A DNA stretch of 64,000 bases from an uncultured Chloroflexia bacterium (GCA_963751345.1 CAVVUS010000019.1:77975-141974); one strand, 5' to 3'; positions 1,040 through 50,723 are shown, counted from the stretch's first letter. The notes: generated from the sequence alone by a model not told the origin. Numbers and translations: made by a program.

Positions 1040-3560
1040 ATGAACCGTAGGTATCGAGTGGGCCTTCGTATCGTGTATGTCGTGGTTCTTCTGTTGTCGG
1101 TGTCGGTCGGACAGGTACGGGCCGATCCGATCGATACGCCAATCGGGCCGCCGTTGCCGCAGCAGCCCGATCTGCCGTTCCACCTGCAGTCCGGTCCCCT
1201 TACACGGGTACCATAGCGCCTCTGGCCGTCACGTCGGCGCCGCCGCTGAAGGTGATCACGGACCCGACGCTGGATATGAGAGTGCTCGTCATCATGGATA
1301 GCGAGATCCAGGTCATCGACTATACGTCCGACGGCGTTAACCAGATGATCACTGGGCTATCTGGACATCCTGGGTATCCCCTATGACGTCCATCGATATC
1401 AACGGTCGGGACCGGGCGTTCCACTGTTCACCGATGCGGAACTGTGGGACGGGGTGAACCACGGCAACTACTACGCGATCTTTGTCGGCACCTACGCTGT
1501 CTGGTTGTATGGACCGGACAAGCTCACCGCTGACGAGCGTGCTCCTGATCCAGGCCTACGAGCGCAATTTCGACGTGCGACAGGTGACGTGGTACGCGTA
1601 CCACTGAGGCCACCCAATGGGGACTTGATCCTGGGCCAGACGGCGGTCAGCCGTGACGACGACGCTGACAGACGCAACGGCGAGACGGTCTTCAGCTACC
1701 TCAAGTCCGACATCGAGCTACCGATCACCGATGCCTACACCTATCTCGGGACACGTGCTGCTGGGGCCGTCGTCACACCACTGCTCGAGTTCCGCGATCC
1801 GGCCACATCTACACGGACAGTCGATAGCTATCCGATCGTGAGCATCTTCGAGCCCACCGATTCCGGCGACCAGATGGTGGTGACGGCGGCTGCGTACTAT
1901 CCCGCGACGCCGCCAGTGAGCATCCAGGCCGGCTGTTGCCCTACGGCATCATCAACTGGGCGACCAAGGGGGTTTTCCTCGGCCAGCGCCACCTCTACTT
2001 CACGCCGCAGCCCGACGATATGCTCTCGTATCGGCGACCGGTGGGATGCGACCACACACACTACGGTCTTTGATCAGGGCTTCCGGCTGAAACCGAGCGA
2101 TGTGGACAATCTGATCTCGTGGATGACTGCGTTCCGCGCCACGGCCAACGCAGCAGAACTTCAAGATCGAGATGCCATTCAACGGCGAGGGTGTGGAGTA
2201 CGATACCGAGATGGCACGATGAACGGTACCATCCTGCCCAACACCCTGACGGCCAAGGTCATCAAGCAGACGTAAAGGACATTCGTCTGGCTCAATCACA
2301 CGTGGAGCCATCCGGATCTCTACACGTCCACGTACCAGTTCGCATACGATGACATCTACAGCAACACCCTCACGGCCCAGCTTCTCGGCTTCACGGATTA
2401 CACGACCACCACGCTGCTGACGGGGGCCTACAGCGGGCTGACAAACACCAGGTGATCAGCGCCGCCTACGACCTGGGCGTCCGCTACATGGAGTCGAACG
2501 CATCGCAGCCGGGCTTCAACAATCCCAGCCCCAACACCGGGATCTACACCGGCACCGGCGGGGCGATGCTCCTGGTGCCGCGCCTGGCCAACAAATCTTC
2601 TACTTCGCGGGCACGCCGGACGAGGAGGTGGACTACTACAACCTCGTGTACGATGCAATCAACGGTGCTGTACTATTGCGAGCCTATTACGACCACTCCG
2701 ATTCCGGGGCACCTTTGCTACAACTACAACGAGATCCTGGATAGGGTCACAAACCAGGCGCTGGGCTTCCTGCTCGACTTCAACGTCGACGCGACGATGT
2801 TCCATATGAACAACCTGAACCAGTACTCGGGTGGCACCAACACCTTGATGGGCGACTACGTGACCGCGCTCTACAGCAAGTACAACACCTACTACAACAC
2901 AACGTGCCGATCCTGAGCCCGCGCACGCAGGAGATCGGCGACCTGATGCAGCAGCGGATGGACTACAACGCTTCCGGCGTATCGGGCATCATCGCCTGCG
3001 CCAACCAGATCACGGTGACCATCCCGACGACCGCGACCACCGGCGCCCGGGTACCGGTCACCGGCGTGGACTTCGGCGGCGACACCGAGAACTACGCCGG
3101 GCAGGACATCTCCTACGTGCAGATGGGCATCGGCGAGACGGTGGTGATCCCCGGCACGGGGTCGGCTTCGACGCCGGCGCCGTCACCAATCTGCAGGTCA
3201 CACCGGGGACGCCCACGACGCTGACCTGGGACTGCTGACCCGAATGCCTATGGCTACCGCGTCTACGGCAGCACGACGTCCGGTCACACCTGGCCTACAA
3301 CCGAGCTGGGCGTGGTCACGACAGCGACGTACTCCGATGACTCCGGCAGCACCTACTACGCCGTGACCGCGATCGCCAATGACTGCTGGAAACACGAGTC
3401 GGCGGCGTCCTTCGTGAATATACCCCCCACGGCACTGACGCTGGTCGGGATAGGCGCCACATCGGGCTCGCTCGTGCTCGTGGGCCTAGTCCCGCTGGCT
3501 GCGGTCGCCCTGGTGGTCCTGAGTCTCGTGTGGAGCAAGCGCAGGCATCAGGTAAGGTGA
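1040..3560 (+). CDS. Secreted Agd3-like (CE18-type) polysaccharide deacetylase with C-terminal membrane anchor; several frameshifts
   Basis: ATG 1040 after GGAGG, signal peptide MNRRYRVGLRIVYVVVLLLSVSVGQVRA. Pieces in successive frames: ITDAYTYLG, WLNHTWSHPDL, NPSPNTGI, LLVPRLAN, MFHMNNL, resembling Agd3-family motifs (recognised by eye). Ends PPTALTL-TM-SKRRHQVR. Confidence 0.65.
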
Positions 3561-43558: not shown

Positions 43559-44998
43559 TCAGTTGGTGAAGCCGGCCTCGCGCAGCAGCGGTGTGGTGGG
43601 TCGCCCGACGACGAGGCCGCCGTTCTGGACGTAGCCTTCCTCGCGGCCCGTCGAGTTCCTCGATCAGGTGCCGGCGCCATTGGCGGACGATGTCCGGGTG
43701 AGCCGGTGCGAGGTCGTGGGTCTCCTTCGGGTCGTCACCCAGATTGAAGAGCTGCTCTGCGCCTAGCTGCGAGTACCAGATGTACTTCCACACGCCGTCC
43801 GTCAGCCATTGGTTCGAGTATTGGCCCGCGGTGTGTTCTCCGTGGATGTAGGTCGCGCCATGCGGGGGTCTCACCACGACAGAAGGGCAGGACGCTGCGG
43901 CCCTCGATGGTTTCCGGGACCGCAATGCCGGCGACCTCGCAGAGCGTGGGCAGCACGTCACGCATCTCGATAGGGGCATCCACCGTGGCGTGTTGGAGGC
44001 CGCCCATTGACCTCGGCAGGCGGAGCAGGAAGGGGACGCGCGCAGAGGCGTCGTAGGGCAGGGCCTTGGCCAGCAGGCCATGGTCGTAGAGCATCTCGCC
44101 GTGGTCGGAGCAGAAGAGGATCGCGGTGTTGTCCAACACGCCGTGCGCGTGGAGCGCGTGGATGAGGCGGTTGATCTGGTGGTCGATGAACGTGATCTGG
44201 GCGTAGTAGGCGCGGCGCGCGCGGTCGCGCTGGACGGGATCGAAGGGCGTCGGGCTGTCGACGCCGCGAAGGGGCATCGGGTAGTCCGCGTCCCAATCGC
44301 CTGCGACCGGAGGCGGAAGCTCGACCTGCTCATACATCCGGACGTAGGCCTCGGGAGGATCGAGCGGCGGGTGGGGCCGGTGGTAGGACGCGTAGAGAAA
44401 GAAGGGCTTGGTCGGGTCGCGGCGGCGCAGGAAGTCGACGGATTGGGTGGTGACCCAGGCGGTGGGGTGAAGCATCTCATCGTAGATCCACGGGCGTGTC
44501 ACGTAGCCATTGCAGCCGATGCCGGTGTCGGTGTAGTCTGCGGCGGGCCCGTGTGCGGCGCGCAGCCAGGGAAGGTAGTCGTCAACCAGGGTGACGTCCT
44601 GGGTGGGCCGGCGCTCGTGGTGCAGGTAGCCGTCGTGGAGCACGACGTTGTGGAACCCGATGAGGTTTCGGGGTGGGTAGACGTGCATCTTGCCCACGGC
44701 CTGCGTGTGGTAGCCGCCCACGGGCCAACAGGCCGGCCAGCGTGACCTCGTAGGTCCACGGCACGCCGTCTTGATAGCCAACGCGACCGTGGCTGCGCGG
44801 CGTGAGGCCGGTGTGGAGCGACGCGCGCGAGGGGATGCACGTCGGGCAGGCCGCATAGGCCTGGCTGAAGGCGATGCCCTCGGCAAAGAGCCGGTCCAGG
44901 TGAGGCGTCTCGGCGGGCGTATTCCCGGCAAAGCCGAGCGCATCCGCGCGCCACTGGTCGACGTGGATGAACAGAATGTTGGGCTGTGGGGCGGTCAT
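43559..44998 (-). CDS. Sulfatase (arylsulfatase-like); frameshifts
   Basis: PNILFIHVDQWR, CIPSRAS (CxPxR), GKMH, RPHPP, SDHGEM, EQLFNL..DP.E. Confidence 0.9.
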
Positions 44999-45287
44999 AG
45001 GTCGGTGACCTCCTTTGGATGGTCTGTACGGGATATGCTCGTGATGGTAGGCGCCGCCCGGCGCAGGTCAACCCAGCGGTGCGACGCCGGAAGATCGTGG
45101 CTCGGGTTCACTGACCTAGTGCTGCTGCACCGCCCCCGCTCGTCCATGCATCCTCTTTTGCGAGCAGTGCCCTCTCGGCTTTAACGACCTTGTAACAACA
45201 GCGTAATCCCTCCCACTGCGATACCACCTATACTGGAAGTGTGAGTGAAGACCGGTCCGCGTGACCGACGTCCACCCGGAGGGTTCA

Positions 45288-45633
45288 ATGGCATCGTCTC
45301 TATCTGCTCGGCCTAAGGGCGGCCGCATACCGGCACCGGCAGCATCCGGATCCGTAGCGGAGCTCGTCGAGGCCCCTGAGTGCCCCGACGTAGGGGGTGC
45401 TCCTGCCCGATTGTCGATTGATATCGAACGTGCTTACACACTGGCAGACCGAGTCCTGGCGCTGGACCAGCCATGGCGCAGCCACTTCATTGAGTATATC
45501 GCGCTGCGTGCCAATGCGACTCCAGTTGGAGGACCGGCCACCCTCCCGCTCTCAGCTCGCAGTGTGGCTGGCAAATCAGGGACTACACCGGCTCATCACG
45601 GTTCTCATGCGGACCTGGGACCCTAGCGCGTGA
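45288..45633 (+). CDS. Hypothetical protein, 'EPWR' domain copy 1; one frameshift near 45530
   Basis: GGAGG RBS; LADRVLALDQPWRSHF...PSRSQLAVWL...LMRTW; corrected stop overlaps next start (GTGA, 45630-45633). Confidence 0.7.
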
Positions 45634-45875
45634 TCATTGAGATGGCAATTCGCGAAGGGACCAATCCCGCGGAGCGGGCGGCTACAGTGACCGACGGTAT
45701 CCTGTCACTTGCGGAGCCGTGGCGCACCCGGTTCGTGGTCTTGGTCGCGCGTTATGCCGGGGTAGATCGGGTGGCCGAGTCGCCCTCGCGCGAGGACATT
45801 ATCGCGTGGTTGGAGGATGAAGACGTCTATGACAAGATCCGGCTCATGTTGAGGACCTGGACTCACTCCGGCTAG
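45630..45875 (+). CDS. Hypothetical protein, 'EPWR' domain copy 2
   Basis: VTDGILSLAEPWRTRF...PSREDIIAWL.D...MLRTW. Confidence 0.75.
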   Translation: MIIEMAIREGTNPAERAATVTDGILSLAEPWRTRFVVLVARYAGVDRVAESPSREDIIAWLEDEDVYDKIRLMLRTWTHSG

Positions 45876-46049
45876 CAGCGGATCGCGGTCGCGGGCCGTC
45901 AGGGAGCCCGGAAAGAGGGACGACGCGGACGCCGCGCCGTCCCTCTTGTCGTCTTGGCAGGATGGTGCAGTACGATATACTTGTCAGTATCTCAGATATG
46001 TGAGCTGCCGTCGTGATGCGATTGCCTATCATGGAGCTGCAAGTCCGCT

Positions 46050-46592
46050 ATGAGTGACGATGAGTCCCGGCTGATCCGCCAGGCGAAGGCCGGGAACCGA
46101 GACGCGTTTGCCGCGTTGTACCGGAGCTATCACCCGAAAGTCTACCGCTACATCCTCTTCCGGGTCGACAGCGTGGCTACCGCAGAGGACCTCGCCAGCG
46201 AGGTCTTCGTGCGCCTCGTGGACCGCATCGACCAGTTTGACGAGCGGGGCCGCCCGATCCTGGCGTGGCTCTACACGATCGCCCGGAACCTCGTGTCGGA
46301 TCACTATCGTCGCGAGGGGCGGGCCGAGCAGACGGAGCTTCACGATGGGCTGGTCGACGATACCGTAGATCCTTCTCAGGCGGCGCATTACTCGCTCCTG
46401 GAAAGCGACCTGGCCATCGCGCTGGGCCAACTGACCGAGGAGCAGCGCCAAGTCATTATGCTGCGGTTCTTTGAGGATCTCGACAACGCCGCGACGGCTC
46501 GCGTGCTTGACAAGAGCGTGGGCGCCGTCAAGGCGCTGCAGCACCGGGCGTTGGCCGCGCTGGCTCGCTGCCTGGGGACCGGGGAGCCCTGA
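46050..46592 (+). CDS. ECF sigma factor
   Basis: LI.QAKAGNRDAFAALY, AEDLASEVF, AWLYTIARN, LTEEQRQVIMLRF, SVGAVKALQHRAL. Confidence 0.93.
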   Translation: MSDDESRLIRQAKAGNRDAFAALYRSYHPKVYRYILFRVDSVATAEDLASEVFVRLVDRIDQFDERGRPILAWLYTIARNLVSDHYRREGRAEQTELHDGLVDDTVDPSQAAHYSLLESDLAIALGQLTEEQRQVIMLRFFEDLDNAATARVLDKSVGAVKALQHRALAALARCLGTGEP

Positions 46593-46692
46593 TAGCTGCT
46601 GCGCCGTATCCTTGTGGGTGGAGCGACGTTATTCACATTAAGAATGCGTTGGTCTGTCGCTGTACGTGGACGAGGGAGTTTGGGCCGGTGCG

Positions 46693-47793
46693 ATGCTAAG
46701 CCTAGATGAAGTGTTGGATGAGTGCTTGACGCGGTTGGCAAGAGGCGAGCCGTTGAGGTGGGTCGTCGACCGCTATCCCGCGTATGCACGCGAACTCATG
46801 CCCCTCCTGGAGATGGCGGAGGAGTTGTGGCGCGTACGTCTACCGCAGCCGAGCCGCGAAGCCTATGAGGCTGGGCGGGCAGAGATGCTCACGGCCCTGG
46901 ACCGCAAGGATGCCAAGCGCAGCCGCCGCAGGTTCGCCTGGGCCGTTTCGTTGGGCGGGGTCGCCCTGGTTGTCCTCATCACGGGCCTGTTCGCCCTGCA
47001 GTACCGGCTGCCTTTCGACATCCGCTTCGGCGCGGGCCCCGACGATCATTCTGCGCAGGTCGCGATGGCTGCGGGCACCGTGCTGCGTCTGCCTGCCCAG
47101 GCAACGATTTGGGAGCCGCTGAACGCAGGCGACACCGTCCTGCCGGGCGAGAGGGTGCAGACCGCGGGAAGTGGTTCGACCGAGCTCCGTTTTGCGGATG
47201 GCACCGTGGCGGAGTTGAGCCCGAACACGGAGATTGCCGTGGCCGGTGTGGCGACGACAGAGACCCCCGGGTCGCCGGCTAACGTGATCTACGTGGAGCG
47301 GGGTGAGGTGGCCTACGACACTCCGGAGAGCGAGGGCTCTGCCACACCTCGACGGCACCTCGAGGTCCGTACGGCGTCTGCAGTGGCCGTGCCGGAGACA
47401 CCCGGACGTTTCTCCATGACGGTGTCGTCGGCGGGTGCGACGTTGCTGGAAGCTGATACCGGACAGGTTTCCCTCACGAGTGCTTCCGGCGAGATCCAGG
47501 TGGTCAAGCCTGGGCACAGCGCCGAAGTGGCCGCGTCATCTTCGCGGCCTGAGCAGCCGCCGGGGCAGGAGAAGCAGGAGCCGGGACCCGCCGGCTCGGT
47601 GGCGACGCCGACGCCCACGCCAAGGGCTCATCCGTCCCAAGGAACACAGCCGACGCCGAAGCCGTCCCACACACCCAAGCCCACGCATACGCCCAAGCCG
47701 TCCCGGGATACGGGCCCTCCGGTGGAACCACCGGGGCAATCGGGCCGAGATCACGTGCCACCTGGGCAATCCAACAAAGACAAAGACAAGTGA
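46693..47793 (+). CDS. Membrane-bound anti-sigma factor with extracytoplasmic FecR-like domain
   Basis: N-terminal LDECL..L..GE...YP..A.EL.PLL, one TM, GDTVLPGERVQT...RFADGTVAELSPNT (FecR-like), PT-rich tail with PPGQ repeats; directly after the ECF gene. Confidence 0.75.
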   Translation: MLSLDEVLDECLTRLARGEPLRWVVDRYPAYARELMPLLEMAEELWRVRLPQPSREAYEAGRAEMLTALDRKDAKRSRRRFAWAVSLGGVALVVLITGLFALQYRLPFDIRFGAGPDDHSAQVAMAAGTVLRLPAQATIWEPLNAGDTVLPGERVQTAGSGSTELRFADGTVAELSPNTEIAVAGVATTETPGSPANVIYVERGEVAYDTPESEGSATPRRHLEVRTASAVAVPETPGRFSMTVSSAGATLLEADTGQVSLTSASGEIQVVKPGHSAEVAASSSRPEQPPGQEKQEPGPAGSVATPTPTPRAHPSQGTQPTPKPSHTPKPTHTPKPSRDTGPPVEPPGQSGRDHVPPGQSNKDKDK

Positions 47794-47844
47794 AGGATCC
47801 GGCAGATGCCCGCAACGCCGGGGTGGAGTGCCGGATCGACGGCT

Positions 47845-48345
47845 ATGGCTGACTACCTCGTCGACGTACTCGACCAAAGCCTTGGTTGCATGGCACTGGG
47901 CGAGCCACTGAGCCAGTGTGTGGTGTGTAGCCCCGAATACGCAGACCAGCTACTTCCTCTGCTTCAGGTGGCGCAGATCCTGCGGCACTGGGCATCGCTG
48001 ACGGCACGTGAAGAGGCGTTCGAACGTGGTTACGCCAGGACCATGGCGGCGGTTGACGCCAGGCTGGACAGCCTCAACCGGCTCCAGGTCGCCAAGGGGT
48101 GCCTGGAGCTCACGCCCGAGATGCTCGGCGCCGACCGTCTGGCCCAGCGTATCCTGGGCCTCGATGAGCCGTGGCGATCTCGGTTCATCGCCTTCGTCCT
48201 CTCTCACTGCAGGACCAACGGGGTCGCGCCGCCCGACGATGGCCTGAGGCAAGAGCTGGTTGCCGGCCTTCTTGACGACGAGCTCTATCCCCTGACCGCA
48301 GCGCTATTACAGACGTGGTGTCACGACAGAGTCGACCAGGCTTAG
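47845..48345 (+). CDS. Soluble fusion of an anti-sigma-like N-terminal domain and 'EPWR' domain copy 3
   Basis: VLDQSL...LGEPL...PEYA..LLPLL..A..L aligns with the anti-sigma N-terminus; C-terminal LAQRILGLDEPWRSRF...LLQTW. Confidence 0.72.
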   Translation: MADYLVDVLDQSLGCMALGEPLSQCVVCSPEYADQLLPLLQVAQILRHWASLTAREEAFERGYARTMAAVDARLDSLNRLQVAKGCLELTPEMLGADRLAQRILGLDEPWRSRFIAFVLSHCRTNGVAPPDDGLRQELVAGLLDDELYPLTAALLQTWCHDRVDQA

Positions 48346-48546
48346 TCGAGCACTTCGTGTGAGAGTTGTTCACCGGATCGGCTGCCTATCCGGTTCCCTG
48401 CACTGCGACGTGCTCGCCGAGCTTGCTTTTTCGGGTCGCCTGCCGATAATGCGTTGCCAGACTCCTGATCAGGGTCACGCGGCGTTGTAGAGACGACGAC
48501 CGCGGGGGCTGCGTCGCAATACGCAGCCGAGTCGAAAGGGGGGGCA

Positions 48547-49179
48547 ATGGCACATTGGGAGATGGTTCAGGGCGATGAGCCAATCCGGCTGTTCAAGTCT
48601 GACGTGCTGGAGTTCTTCACTCACATCCATCCTGCAGTGGTTGTAGCGATCTGGCTTCCGGTGGGGGTCTATGCCCTGGTGCGCGCGATCCTAACGCCGG
48701 GCCTGGGTGTGGGCAGCTTGGTTGTGGGCGTCCTACTGGGCGTCTTCGTGTGGACGCTCACCGAGTACACGGTGCATCGCTTCGTGTTTCACTTTCCTCC
48801 GCGCACGCCCCGGCAGGAACGGATCTCCTTCCTCTTCCACGGTGTGCACCACGCGCAGCCGCGCAGCAAGACGCGGCTGGTCATGCCCCCGGTCGTGAGC
48901 GTCCCGCTATCCTTGTTCTTCTATGGGCTCTTCCGGTTGGTGGTCGGCGTGGCGCTGGGTGCCCCTGCCTGGATCGCGCCGCTCTTTGCCGGGTTCGTCT
49001 TCGGGTACCTGACCTACGACATGACACACTACGCGACGCACCACTTCCCGATGAAGTGGGGTTATTTCAAGATGGTTCGCCGCCATCATATGCTGCACCA
49101 CGCGCGTACCCCTGACCGGCGTTTCGGCGTGAGCTCGCCGCTCTGGGATTACGTGTTTGGCACGGAGCCACAGAGCTAG
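48547..49179 (+). CDS. Fatty acid hydroxylase / sterol desaturase family
   Basis: EYTVHRFVFH, HGVHHAQP, RLVMPP, YDMTHYATHH, HMLHH, FGVSSPLWD His boxes. Confidence 0.92.
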   Translation: MAHWEMVQGDEPIRLFKSDVLEFFTHIHPAVVVAIWLPVGVYALVRAILTPGLGVGSLVVGVLLGVFVWTLTEYTVHRFVFHFPPRTPRQERISFLFHGVHHAQPRSKTRLVMPPVVSVPLSLFFYGLFRLVVGVALGAPAWIAPLFAGFVFGYLTYDMTHYATHHFPMKWGYFKMVRRHHMLHHARTPDRRFGVSSPLWDYVFGTEPQS

Positions 49180-49268
49180 CACGCAGGCTCGAGACCTTTG
49201 GGGTTTCGCCGTCGAGCAGGTGCCTACTCGACAAGGAAGCCCCAAAGGTCTTTCATGTAAGGAGATGC

Positions 49269-50723
49269 ATGCACCAACATCACGAGGGTCGCCTGACGGC
49301 CCGCGACTGCAAACGCTACATCCGCCACGAGTTCACCGCGCCGGAACTGGCGCGGCTGGAGATCGATTTCCGGTTTTCCCCGGAGCGCGTCCACGATATA
49401 CGCAACTTGCTGACGCTCACTCTCTTCGATCCCCACGGGTTCAGGGGGGCGGGCCATCGCGGCGGGGCGCATCACCACGTCTCTATCGATACGGCGGCGG
49501 CAACGCCGGGATATCTGCCCGGCCGGCTTCCCGCGGGGCGATGGGTCGTGGAGATCGATACGCACATGATCATGCCGGGCGATCCCGTGGCCTACACCCT
49601 CGACGTGACCGCGATAGAACGTGCGGGGGAGGACGGGGTCGCGCCGGATAGAGAGCCGCCCGTGCGCGGGCCGGCGAAGGGGCCGGCGCGCGGACCCGGT
49701 TGGTACCGCGGTGACCTGCACACTCACACCGACCACTCGGATGCGGATGACTTCCCCGTCGCGGCCCTTCTGGCGACGGCAGGGCAGGCGGGCTTCGACT
49801 TCGTCTTTCTGACAGATCACAACACGATCTCCGGCCTGGCGGAGATGGACGCCGCCTCGTCGGAGACGCTGCTCACGGCGGGCGGGATGGAGCTCACCAC
49901 GTACTGGGGCCACGCGCTCTGCCTGGGAACGCGCGACTGGGTGGATTGGCGGGCCGGCCCGGGTACGGGCGAGCTGCCCCGCACGGCGGCGGAGCTCTAT
50001 GCCCGGGGCCAGGTCTTTGTGATCGCCCATCCCGGATCCGACGGCGACCCCGGCTGTACGGGCTGTACATGGCGGGTGCCCGAAATGTACCCCGGCAACG
50101 CGCGGGTGGTCGAGGTGTGGAACGGCCCGTGGCGCGGTGACTCCGGCAATGAGGAGGCTCTCGCGCTGTGGTACGACTGGCTCAACGAGGGGCTGCGGCT
50201 CGTCGCCAGCGCCGGGTCCGACTACCACGGTGATGTGGACGAGCTGCTTCCGGAGGCAGGCCCGGGGTCCGAGGCAGATGACGGGACCGACGAGGTCGAC
50301 GTGGTAGCCGTCGCTGCTGCGGCGAACGTTGGGTTCAGCGTCATCTACGCGGAGGCGCTGACAGAAGCGGCGCTGCTCAAGGCGCTCATGGCCGGCCATC
50401 TCTATCTCAGTGCGGGGCCCCAGGTCAGCTTCGAGGCCCGCGCCGCAGGCACGGTCTCGATGATGGGCGATGAGGTGCCGGCGAGTGCCGCCGAGGAGGG
50501 GATCACGCTAGCGGTCACGTGGGACCATTGCGCCGCAGATGCACAGGTGCGGACGATCGTGAACGGCCGACTGTTGGATGCGTGGCCCGCGGAGGGGCGT
50601 GGCACGCGCGAGTGGACGATGCAGGTCGACGAGGCCGACTGGGTCGTCGTGGAGATCCGCGATGCCCGCGGGGCGATGCTGGCGCTCACGAATCCCATCT
50701 TCCTGCCGGCGCCGGTACGGTGA
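49269..50723 (+). CDS. PHP-domain metallohydrolase (CehA/McbA-like)
   Basis: WYRGDLHTHT.HSD, TDHNT, GMELTT..GHA, IAHP, EVWNG, GSDYH. Confidence 0.85.
   Translation: MHQHHEGRLTARDCKRYIRHEFTAPELARLEIDFRFSPERVHDIRNLLTLTLFDPHGFRGAGHRGGAHHHVSIDTAAATPGYLPGRLPAGRWVVEIDTHMIMPGDPVAYTLDVTAIERAGEDGVAPDREPPVRGPAKGPARGPGWYRGDLHTHTDHSDADDFPVAALLATAGQAGFDFVFLTDHNTISGLAEMDAASSETLLTAGGMELTTYWGHALCLGTRDWVDWRAGPGTGELPRTAAELYARGQVFVIAHPGSDGDPGCTGCTWRVPEMYPGNARVVEVWNGPWRGDSGNEEALALWYDWLNEGLRLVASAGSDYHGDVDELLPEAGPGSEADDGTDEVDVVAVAAAANVGFSVIYAEALTEAALLKALMAGHLYLSAGPQVSFEARAAGTVSMMGDEVPASAAEEGITLAVTWDHCAADAQVRTIVNGRLLDAWPAEGRGTREWTMQVDEADWVVVEIRDARGAMLALTNPIFLPAPVR

Follow-up and report, generated by a model that had tools for sequence, protein, structure and literature searches.

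ECF sigma/anti-sigma pairs are the most common third pillar of signalling in bacteria; to our knowledge, they rarely have accessory subunits in the cytoplasm. The locus described here, part of a 64,000-nucleotide stretch of DNA from an uncultured Chloroflexia bacterium (in the following, the window), raises the question whether one of these pairs has acquired such a subunit. An earlier note on this DNA reported a sigma/anti-sigma pair bracketed by three copies of an unrecognised domain, EPWR, and proposed a partner-switching module through which the sigma factor would receive an additional, cytoplasmic input. Below, we consider whether EPWR is a protein family of its own, how closely it is tied to sigma/anti-sigma loci, and what it may do there.

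Gene layout of the locus

An ORF check of the window confirmed the five co-oriented genes and their coordinates (45288-48345, plus strand; Table 1). An Rfam scan of 44000-49500 gave no match at E<=1.

Table 1. Features of the EPWR locus, with positions counted from the first nucleotide of the window
Feature	Position	Strand	Description
EPWR copy 1	45288..45633	+	small stand-alone protein; +1 frameshift near 45519-45522; N-half 45288-45518, C-half 45520-45633
EPWR copy 2	45630..45875	+	intact stand-alone protein; start at GTG 45630 (81 aa) or ATG 45642 (77 aa)
Hairpin 3' of copy 2	45913..45947	+	15 bp, GC-rich, MFE structure; possible terminator with weak U-tract
Sigma-70-like promoter 5' of the ECF sigma gene	45954..45981	+	TTGGCA-16-TATACT, 10/12 matches
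ECF (group 4) sigma factor, 180 aa	46050..46592	+	Pfam Sigma70_r2, Sigma70_r4_2; TIGR02937
FecR-domain single-pass membrane anti-sigma-type protein, 375 aa	46666..47793	+	Pfam FecR; hydropathy
Protein 6, soluble ASDN-EPWR fusion, 179 aa	47806..48345	+	ASDN paralogue and EPWR copy 3

The sigma factor matches Sigma70_r2 with 72.7 bits (residues 23-91), Sigma70_r4_2 with 46.5 bits (residues 124-171) and TIGR02937 with 94.6 bits against a cut-off of 42.9. It is short and has regions 2 and 4 without regions 1.1 or 3, which places it in the ECF group. Its best specific NCBIfam model is TIGR02952, the family of BldN, whose anti-sigma factor is RsbN. The score of 166.8 bits lies below the curated cut-off of 206.45, and the protein therefore falls outside the TIGR02952 membership and is not a filed BldN member; the locus also differs from BldN/RsbN in the FecR domain of its anti-sigma. 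A passage in PMC7826278 equates the BldN group with ECF121 and places FecR-like anti-sigma factors with groups ECF239-243.

The 375-aa membrane protein starts with a helical N-domain, here called ASDN (residues 8-85, 46687-46920, delimited in a family alignment), followed by a single hydrophobic stretch (residues 89-117, 46930-47016), the FecR domain PF04773 (residues 163-268, 47152-47469; 29.3 bits against a Pfam cut-off of 24) and a Pro-rich tail. The membrane segment was assigned from a hydropathy calculation alone, with a Kyte-Doolittle maximum over 19 residues of 2.41 at residue 93. All five fused sigma-anti-sigma relatives tested carry a FecR domain as well. The linker of approximately 250 residues in such fused proteins, which had been considered as a site of EPWR, is a HisKA and HATPase_c core instead. 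From gene order, domain architecture and the relatives that hold sigma and ASDN in one polypeptide, we infer that ASDN is the sigma-binding anti-sigma domain. No consistent Pfam family was found for it in 19 members, and its best match among PDB sequences (E-value 0.027) is an unrelated protein.

Protein 6 joins a paralogue of this N-domain (residues 12-90, 47839-48075) to EPWR copy 3 (residues about 100-174, 48103-48327), and hydropathy reveals no hydrophobic segment. The fusion of the third copy to an anti-sigma-like domain is thus real, as had been described. A single full-length relative was found, P0002 (66% identity), and a metagenome scan with protein 6 returned 11 loci, all matching the EPWR half alone, and no further ASDN-EPWR fusion. 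The AF2 model (pLDDT 84.6, pTM 0.47) comprises two confident domains with no confident packing; given this pTM, it does not predict with confidence that ASDN and EPWR touch each other in the chain. Its fold search gave a best Foldseek E-value of 0.78 and a top VIA Z of 6.1, with no fold match for ASDN among the results.

The three EPWR peptides of the earlier note are all present in the window and align with each other, but copy 1 is not a single ORF in this assembly. Its N-half (...LALDQPWRSHFIEYIALRANA) is read in the frame of ORF 45261-45626 and its C-half (LQLEDRPPSRSQLAVWLAN...LMRTWDPSA*) in that of ORF 45397-45633, and the string given for this copy therefore switches frame at the site listed in Table 1. 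Single-frame relatives of copy 1 have 114-129 aa. P0017 (129 aa) and P0012 (114 aa), each a single protein, are co-linear with both halves, and a 121-aa single-frame relative of the copy-1 paralogue type (L027:5753-6118) aligns with frame +3 up to 45533 and with frame +1 from 45535. Two of two public-run contigs that span the site, from run X1 of study P1 and run X4 of study P3, are one base shorter there, at 45522 or 45521. Of the stretch as a whole, the public runs cover little, with 0.18 of its words at the most. The single-frame relatives and the two contigs indicate, by sequence comparison, that the window holds a 1-nt insertion in copy 1, be it an assembly error or a strain mutation. The sulfatase gene next to the locus (43580-44998) shows three changes of frame.

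The suggested GTGA overlap between copies 1 and 2 is likewise there as a sequence (GTG 45630-45632, TGA 45631-45633), but it requires GTG as the start of copy 2, and the stored gene call for this copy (P0163, 77 aa) agrees with the ATG. Near relatives of copy 2 are P0162 (82% identity) and P0164 (90% identity).

The five genes probably form at least two transcription units, with copies 1 and 2 apart from the sigma operon, because the hairpin and the promoter of Table 1 separate copy 2 from the sigma gene. The hairpin received no call in a terminator scan. The TTGGCA...TATACT promoter type precedes the sigma gene in four of the five loci of the genus (the window, L022, L024 and L006), and the fifth (L029) has a variant of it. 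Counting the upstream pair as part of the sigma unit does not sit well with a probable transcription unit of its own and with one of its two genes being frameshifted here.

EPWR as a protein family

EPWR is a true protein family of approximately 65 residues, with four helices and a mostly acidic character. With only copies 2 and 3 as its input, an HMM retrieves about 25 further relatives from related genomes with E-values of 1e-11 to 1e-22 and recovers both halves of copy 1 (2.4e-8 and 1.6e-3); on the level of sequence, the similarity among the copies is far beyond chance. In an alignment of 25 members, E-P-W..R-F, W-L and T-W are invariant; a 13-row subset of it had a stretch of sufficient conservation for a search of related loci. 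The AF2 model of copy 2 (pLDDT 87.6, pTM 0.77) consists of four helices, and 51 of 74 EPWR cores have a pI below 7 (median 5.35).

A wide search of 1.84 billion representatives yielded 191 EPWR clusters. All placeable clusters belong to one order of Anaerolineae (Chloroflexota), where 51 of 145 genomes have EPWR. A weak match elsewhere in the window's own genome (E 0.02) lies inside a HisKA_3 histidine kinase of 1002 aa and is taken to be a chance match.

No described family matches the domain, which agrees with the earlier note. None of 25 members matches Pfam at E<=0.1. NCBIfam gave nothing at E<=1 for the N-half of copy 1 and for copies 2 and 3, and for the frame of the copy 1 C-half just matches at E 0.1-0.2, far below cut-off. 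PDB sequences gave nothing better than E 0.18. The names seen among 55 database relatives all read 'hypothetical protein', with no precomputed Pfam domain, and literature queries on EPWR with sigma and on ECF, anti-sigma, Chloroflexi and FecR found nothing on the domain. Fold comparison did not rise above the generic level of helical bundles: Foldseek had no match at E<=0.001 for the EPWR model, and the top VIA Z of 5.8 is in the range generic for such bundles. Small helical bundles (BRD ET, PIAS SAP, cullin segments) came up in the searches with both this model and that of protein 6, at a generic Z of up to 6.1, and name no family.

The four-helix spacing of the model, judged by eye, recalls sigma region 4, and EPWR might accordingly be read as a degenerate region-4-like or HTH domain, which mimics sigma (as in PhyR) or binds DNA. 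The sole segment aligned by hhalign between EPWR and the sigma factor lies at the start of region 4 (L..L.EPWR versus L..LTE.QR), but it has a probability of 0.09% over 16 columns, and region-4 mimicry was dropped as the main reading on these values. Since there is also no Sigma70_r4 or HTH Pfam match in any of 25 members and no sigma or HTH chain in the top 50 fold matches, and since most EPWR cores are acidic, we consider this origin most improbable.

Genomic contexts of EPWR

Among 69 EPWR loci, 18 lie within one gene of a sigma/anti-sigma module, 17 of these with an orthologous sigma factor; 16 sigma orthologues in EPWR-linked loci share 54-68% identity. The usual order in linked loci is sigma-EPWR-anti-sigma with overlapping genes. 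It is found in families f2 and f3, where stops and starts overlap in several loci (in L058, for example, 953-1495, 1488-1826 and 1805-3130, with L066, L062, L081 and L038 alike), and it is repeated on two near-identical metagenome contigs. Conversely, an EPWR match adjoins 19 of the best 34 ASDN matches in the order, as compared by eye. The linkage to this ECF sigma/anti-sigma family is therefore strong, but it is not exclusive, as neither gene of the pair lies near EPWR in the other 51 of the 69 loci.

Moreover, 13 sigma/anti-sigma pairs of the same family come without EPWR, and none of 20 EPWR-less loci yields a match at E<=0.01. EPWR is therefore dispensable for the sigma/anti-sigma module. 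In the sigma tree, EPWR-linked and EPWR-less pairs interleave, with five changes, at least two of them forced.

Some of the remaining contexts belong to other signalling systems. Some EPWR genes are located in CheA-CheY-CheB operons, others beside histidine kinases or STAND/TPR/BTAD regulators. In one EPWR clade, three of four loci have the EPWR gene flanked by those for a CheA-type kinase and a receiver, and in the fourth, CheA would fall beyond the contig end. At L050, the EPWR gene follows two PAS histidine kinases. A protein of about 1070 aa from one cluster is found near 22 EPWR loci, and all seven examples tested are TPR and BTAD regulators. Long EPWR forms carry an M78 domain N-terminal to EPWR (seven out of seven, plus five representatives from the wide search), a domain they have in common with the ImmA/IrrE (Peptidase_M78) regulators. 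They differ from these in the HExxH zinc motif, which is absent from all 12 fusions examined, so that their M78 domains are probably inactive binding domains; the window itself has no M78 domain. Given these unlinked loci and EPWR-less pairs, the notion of an ECF-specific device has to be given up, and the CheA, histidine-kinase, M78-fusion and TPR/BTAD settings suggest a portable signalling module.

That the same invariant motif recurs in sigma/anti-sigma, CheA, histidine-kinase and STAND/BTAD settings argues for a common partner. Nine EPWR-holding genomes of the genus lack an ASDN match at E<=1e-6, and binding to ASDN alone can therefore not account for the motif. Nucleotide-binding motifs typically contain arginine and aromatic residues, and EPWR might sense a small cytoplasmic molecule, e.g., a nucleotide second messenger, through its invariant Trp and Arg residues and signal to the co-encoded protein. 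This is pure inference, matched by none of the known ligand-binding motifs or folds, and we hold it to be very unlikely.

The arrangement in the window, with a tandem EPWR pair upstream and a soluble ASDN-EPWR protein after the membrane anti-sigma, is unusual. Tandem pairs of the copy-1 plus copy-2 type recur in G012, G015, G016 and one metagenome contig, and those of G017 and a second metagenome contig are of other types; in G012, G015 and G017, the pairs precede an unknown ORF and a Band_7 gene, not a sigma gene. Possibly, copy 3 alone is part of the sigma module, and the upstream pair is a neighbour brought in by rearrangement that serves another pathway. The EPWR tree is in line with this, as it puts copy 3 nearest to the type upstream of sigma in G007, G020 and G003, groups copy 2 with L024, L027:5493, L009 and L033, and separates the copy-1-type genes as a group of their own; the like pairs before Band_7 in G012 and G015, and the hairpin and separate promoter between the pair and the sigma gene, point the same way. 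The tree is poorly resolved, however (it is based on 86 columns, leaves 38 of 70 forks open and gives copy 3 a long branch, 1.76). Furthermore, a copy-2-type EPWR gene lies directly upstream of sigma in G004 (L024), and a metagenome contig (L130) has a tandem pair in front of a truncated sigma remnant, so that the adjacency of EPWR and sigma recurs. We regard a mere neighbour role of the pair as rather unlikely.

A putative accessory module of signalling operons

The reading that we favour, with a little less than even confidence, is that signalling operons have in EPWR an accessory module, acidic and protein-binding, which in this locus acts on the sigma/anti-sigma pair. An ECF sigma factor and its single-pass FecR-domain anti-sigma would here be decorated with a lineage-specific domain, one that a single Anaerolineae order may have placed as a portable cytoplasmic module in several kinds of signalling operons and that would serve this sigma/anti-sigma family as an optional third subunit. 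Most likely, EPWR would dock on the anti-sigma, at its cytoplasmic N-domain, or on sigma and anti-sigma in complex, and docking would shift the ease with which sigma is held or released. The acidity of most cores suggests binding to protein rather than DNA, and the window and P0002 both have ASDN and EPWR joined in a single chain, which links the two in the manner of a Rosetta-stone fusion. The analysis shows the family, its confinement to one order, its gene linkage and fusions and its lack of known-family matches; protein binding, ASDN as the partner here and the direction of the effect are proposed. A complex prediction for sigma, ASDN and copy 2, run with a separate alignment for each chain and without controls, scored 0.01 and 0.00, where the mark is 0.32; these values speak neither in favour of binding nor against it.

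The partner switch of the earlier note takes these elements further: the free copies 1 and 2 would bind the EPWR part of protein 6 and thereby free or occupy its ASDN, giving sigma a second cytoplasmic input. Three EPWR copies around one sigma factor, the recurrence of copy-1/copy-2-type tandem pairs and the lack of a membrane segment in protein 6 would suit such a scheme, and conserved tandem paralogues often hetero-oligomerise. It is at odds with the narrow occurrence of the ASDN-EPWR fusion, given that the 17 other sigma- or anti-sigma-linked loci each hold one free EPWR and no EPWR-bearing partner, with the probable transcription of the pair apart from the sigma operon and with the frameshift in copy 1. 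In our judgement, a partner switch is unlikely. A broader version is still harder to credit, according to which EPWR is a portable regulatory plug-in that couples a shared signal or partner to ECF, CheA/histidine-kinase and STAND pathways, and protein 6 is a decoy anti-sigma set by hetero-oligomerisation with free EPWR, i.e., a partner switch without STAS, kinase or PhyR parts.

Established partner switches are PhyR-NepR-EcfG and RsbV-RsbW. A cytoplasmic protein titrating an anti-sigma is a possible parallel to the present locus. In contrast to these systems, the locus has no receiver, STAS domain or serine kinase that would pass the thresholds used, and EPWR has no significant likeness to region 4. 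None of the corresponding Pfam domains, PhyR-type included, is above cut-off in the five proteins; the sole PhyR_sigma-like match is the sigma factor itself, with 15.3 bits against a cut-off of 27.

Among the known systems close to this locus are the FecI/FecR-like and other pairs of ECF sigma and single-pass FecR-domain anti-sigma. They have the same group-4 sigma with regions 2 and 4 only, directly followed by a membrane protein, in which a single hydrophobic segment likewise connects a helical N-domain in the cytoplasm to a FecR domain outside it. Unlike these pairs, many members here have EPWR as a third gene for a cytoplasmic protein, placed inside the pair or ahead of it, and in the window, a soluble version of the N-domain with EPWR attached comes on top. 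No Pfam or PDB anti-sigma model matches the N-domain itself, and the sigma genes have housekeeping-type promoters.

Implementing all facts, an undescribed domain recurs as a third gene in ECF operons, once fused to an anti-sigma domain, and is found in other signalling contexts as well. The weight of this finding is limited by the confinement of EPWR to one uncultured Anaerolineae order, by the small size of the family and by a mechanism that is only proposed. If EPWR proves to be a binding adaptor, it would represent a new type of regulator for ECF biology, and a single lineage would be seen to wire a common input into unrelated signalling systems.

The EPWR family and its distribution

The EPWR domain of about 65 residues is a real, undescribed family. 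A profile HMM built from copies 2 and 3 of the window alone retrieved small ORFs in related genomes with E-values of 1e-11 to 1e-22. In an alignment of 25 sequences, the E, P, W, R and F of the motif EPW(R)xRF are invariant, and W-L as well as a C-terminal W are nearly so. The AlphaFold2 model consists of four helices (13-25, 31-42, 54-60 and 64-78; pLDDT 87.6, pTM 0.77). The earlier note recognised no family for the domain, and this is in good agreement with our searches: none of the 25 members matches Pfam at E<=0.1, the best PDB sequence hit has an E-value of 0.18, Foldseek returned no match to the model at E<=0.001, and a fold search independent of Foldseek yielded generic small helical bundles with a top Z of 5.8. 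"Hypothetical protein" is the only name that occurs among 55 relatives in a word-indexed collection, which stores no Pfam domain for any of them. A profile search against 1.84 billion representatives yielded 191 EPWR proteins with a cut-off of E<=0.001, of which 145 also pass E<=1e-10; the majority are 67-140 aa long.

The pattern LxEPWRSRF[LIV] gave 25 confirmed loci among 185,579 species with one genome each, and the title of every MAG concerned names Anaerolineae, Anaerolineales, Thermoflexales, Thermoflexia or Chloroflexota. EPWR occurs in 51 of 145 genomes of the window's order, and in 4 of 401 genomes evenly sampled from the class, all four belonging to this order. The EPWR tree separates two well-supported groups, the window's genus (22 rows, with several paralogue types) versus the other two families (51 rows).

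Organisation of the locus in the window

The locus comprises five genes, assembled from six ORF pieces (see table). The sigma factor is assigned to the ECF type by NCBIfam TIGR02937 (94.6 versus a cut-off of 42.9), and its closest specific NCBIfam model, the BldN family, scores 166.8 bits, which is under the cut-off of 206.45. In those sections of the ECF classification (PMC7826278) that deal with them, BldN is placed in ECF121 and FecR-like anti-sigmas with ECF239-243. In the 375-aa anti-sigma, the FecR domain reaches 29.3 bits (Pfam cut-off 24), and hydropathy indicates a single hydrophobic segment at residues 89-117; no such segment was found in protein 6 or in EPWR copy 2. Pfam has no match in the small EPWR proteins or in protein 6. 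The N-terminal 80-90 residues of the anti-sigma and of protein 6 are paralogous, and we term this domain ASDN (anti-sigma-like N-domain). ASDN has no counterpart in Pfam or the PDB and no clear one among solved folds; its putative anti-sigma role is based on position, architecture and natural sigma-ASDN fusions.

Features of the EPWR locus and of related loci (window positions unless a locus, L, genome and contig, G:C, or database protein, P, is named)
Feature	Location	Strand	Remarks
Sulfatase	43580-44998	-	divergent neighbour
EPWR copy 1	start ATG 45288	+	frameshifted, in two ORF pieces
EPWR copy 2	45630-45875	+	ORF, 81 aa, intact
Hairpin, 15 bp	45913-45947		between copy 2 and sigma gene
Sigma-70-like promoter	45954-45981		between copy 2 and sigma gene; pattern match
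ECF sigma factor	46050-46592	+	180 aa, Pfam Sigma70_r2 + r4, intact
Anti-sigma	46666-47793	+	375 aa, FecR domain, one hydrophobic segment, intact
Protein 6	47806-48345	+	179 aa, ASDN + EPWR copy 3, intact
Pro-rich anti-sigma tails	47590-47793; L020, L021, L023, L024, L006, L029		extracytoplasmic
M78 (ImmA/IrrE-like)-EPWR fusions	L049, L052, L057, L059, L064, L079, L083; P0074, P0084, P0131, P0141, P0097
Sigma-kinase-ASDN-FecR fusions	L119 (G089:C290), L120 (G070:C43), L121 (G052:C152), L123 (G029:C1), L126 (G088:C78)
Truncated form of the latter	L122

The extracytoplasmic tails of the anti-sigmas are long Pro-rich repeats, e.g., of PPGQTxTP or PPGxEDKD units. Residues 28-41 in the N-domain of protein 6 read Cys-x9-Cys-x2-Cys, its relative P0002 has Cys-x9-Cys-x2-His at the equivalent place, and the membrane anti-sigmas mostly keep only one Cys at this position. 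A metal or redox site at the motif of protein 6 is possible.

Copy 1 had been quoted in the earlier note as a single ORF. Its similarity to EPWR holds, but the quoted string crosses two reading frames: ORF 45261-45626 shares its frame with the N-terminal half, which extends to about 45518, and ORF 45397-45633 with the C-terminal half, which begins at about 45520. The alignment of a single-frame relative of the copy-1 paralogue type (L027:5753-6118, 121 aa) follows frame +3 as far as 45533 and resumes in frame +1 at 45535, and the single database proteins P0017 and P0012 (129 and 114 aa) each align in order with both halves. Four public runs were compared over this site; the contigs of two stop short of it, and both contigs that span it, from two studies, lack one base at 45522 or 45521. 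Together, these comparisons show that the gene is uninterrupted in relatives and that the window carries one extra base, owing either to a mutation in the strain or to a mistake in the assembly. The neighbouring sulfatase exhibits three frame changes versus an intact orthologue of 84% identity (in G015, a related genome). As the four genes downstream of copy 1 are intact, the frame changes in both genes suggest that decay or assembly errors are local to this region.

In 23 of 28 loci, the 220 bp upstream of sigma contain one or more -10-like hexamers of the searched list, and most of these loci have a TTG-type -35 about 17 bases further upstream (by eye). TTGGCA...TATACT is found in the window and in three loci of its genus (L022, L024, L006), and a variant in a fourth (L029). 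From the hairpin, the promoter and these recurring pattern matches, the sigma operon seems to have its own housekeeping-type promoter, with the EPWR pair as a unit of its own. The five-gene locus described in the earlier note is thus largely right, except that copy 1 is frameshifted and that there are probably two transcription units.

Linkage to the sigma/anti-sigma pair

We annotated 69 EPWR loci, the window and 68 others from 50 genomes, with local HMMs. A sigma or an anti-sigma of the ASDN-membrane segment-FecR type lies at most one gene from EPWR in 18 of them, which bears out the earlier note in linking a new domain to an ECF system; the orthologous sigma (54-68% identity) is present in 17. 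EPWR is not an ECF-specific domain, as 51 of the 69 loci are devoid of this kind of sigma or anti-sigma. The window's genus shows the order EPWR-spacer-sigma-anti-sigma (window, L022, L024, L006 and L029), and two other families of the order show sigma-EPWR-anti-sigma, where the genes overlap at several loci (L021, L038, L058, L062, L066 and L081). The latter order also occurs on two near-identical metagenome contigs. Locus L020 reads sigma-anti-sigma-EPWR-anti-sigma, and in L043, EPWR and an anti-sigma occur with no sigma detected. Another metagenome contig (L130, 1659-4304) has a truncated sigma remnant downstream of a tandem EPWR pair, apparently the window's arrangement in a decayed state. 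Here, similarity to sigma ends after about residue 105, region 4 and an anti-sigma are missing, and an ORF resembling polyphosphate kinase 2 (by eye) follows.

By eye, 19 of the 34 best ASDN matches of the order lie at most about 1.6 kb from an EPWR match on their contig. None of the 20 EPWR-less ASDN loci fetched contains EPWR at E<=0.01; these are 13 plain sigma and anti-sigma pairs, five fusions, one truncated fusion and one anti-sigma alone. On the sigma tree, the 17 EPWR-linked and the 13 EPWR-less pairs interleave, with five changes, at least two of which are forced by well-supported branches. The sigma/anti-sigma module thus often includes EPWR as a third gene but can occur without it.

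Each of the five fusions is a single chain of 820-1060 aa that unites ECF sigma (regions 2/4), a histidine-kinase core (HisKA + HATPase_c), ASDN, a membrane segment and FecR; two carry a lamin-tail domain as well. On the sigma tree, the sigma portions of all five cluster in one supported group. The term "histidine kinase" was not found in the main text, as available, of the ECF classification paper (PMC7826278).

Other contexts and putative function

Pfam detected no sigma domain in 135 ORFs neighbouring EPWR genes (67 ORFs from 12 loci, 27 from 8 and 41 from 15; the last set includes six ORFs of the sigma-module loci L022 and L043). A protein of about 1070 aa, belonging to one cluster, is encoded near EPWR in 22 loci, and TPR and BTAD domains are present in all seven examined. 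Seven of seven EPWR ORFs with a length of 250-298 aa have Peptidase_M78 N-terminal to EPWR, a fusion also found in five representatives of the wide profile search; the HExxH motif is absent from all 12. Sugar-transferase/GT4 genes and the gene of the TPR/BTAD regulator adjoin those of the fusions. P0074 and one ORF of L060 also resemble the Franean1_4349 peptide family weakly, with scores under the cut-off.

One well-supported EPWR clade of four loci (L056, L063, L075 and L076) resides in chemotaxis-like operons with the order CheA-type kinase, EPWR, receiver, and CheB in addition in L075 and L076. The EPWR gene (64-71 aa) is closely flanked by the receiver gene and that of a CheA-type hybrid kinase (Hpt-HATPase-CheW-REC), except that in L076 the contig ends upstream of EPWR with just a receiver fragment. 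In L050, EPWR follows two PAS histidine kinases. Within the window's genus, EPWR precedes an ORF of unknown function and a Band_7 gene in four loci, three of them with a tandem EPWR pair, and lies between ppk1 and a CHAD gene in three. According to the EPWR tree, the Band_7-locus pairs of the genomes G012 and G015 represent the window's copy-1 and copy-2 types, and in G015 a sulfatase lies upstream, as in the window. All these contexts are signalling or transcription control.

The core of the window's locus is an ECF sigma of the ordinary kind, paired with an anti-sigma that spans the membrane once and has a FecR domain. The locus does not belong to the known partner-switch kinds. No STAS, kinase or receiver domain was found in it at the thresholds used, and the EPWR profile does not resemble sigma region 4 significantly (0.09% probability in hhalign). 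EPWR is C-terminal in both kinds of fusion, and its cores are usually acidic (pI <7 in 51 of 74, median 5.35). Together with the signalling contexts, this fits better with a protein-binding accessory module than with a DNA-binding one. In the locus studied here, the putative contact would be the anti-sigma N-domain or the sigma/anti-sigma complex, as the ASDN-EPWR fusion and the tight sigma-EPWR-anti-sigma operons suggest. Two points weigh against a simple EPWR-ASDN story. The model of protein 6 has two confident domains and a pTM of 0.47, so that no contact between them is predicted, and nine EPWR-holding genomes of the window's genus are without any ASDN match. Judging from these nine genomes, the invariant EPWR motif must serve something more general than ASDN binding.
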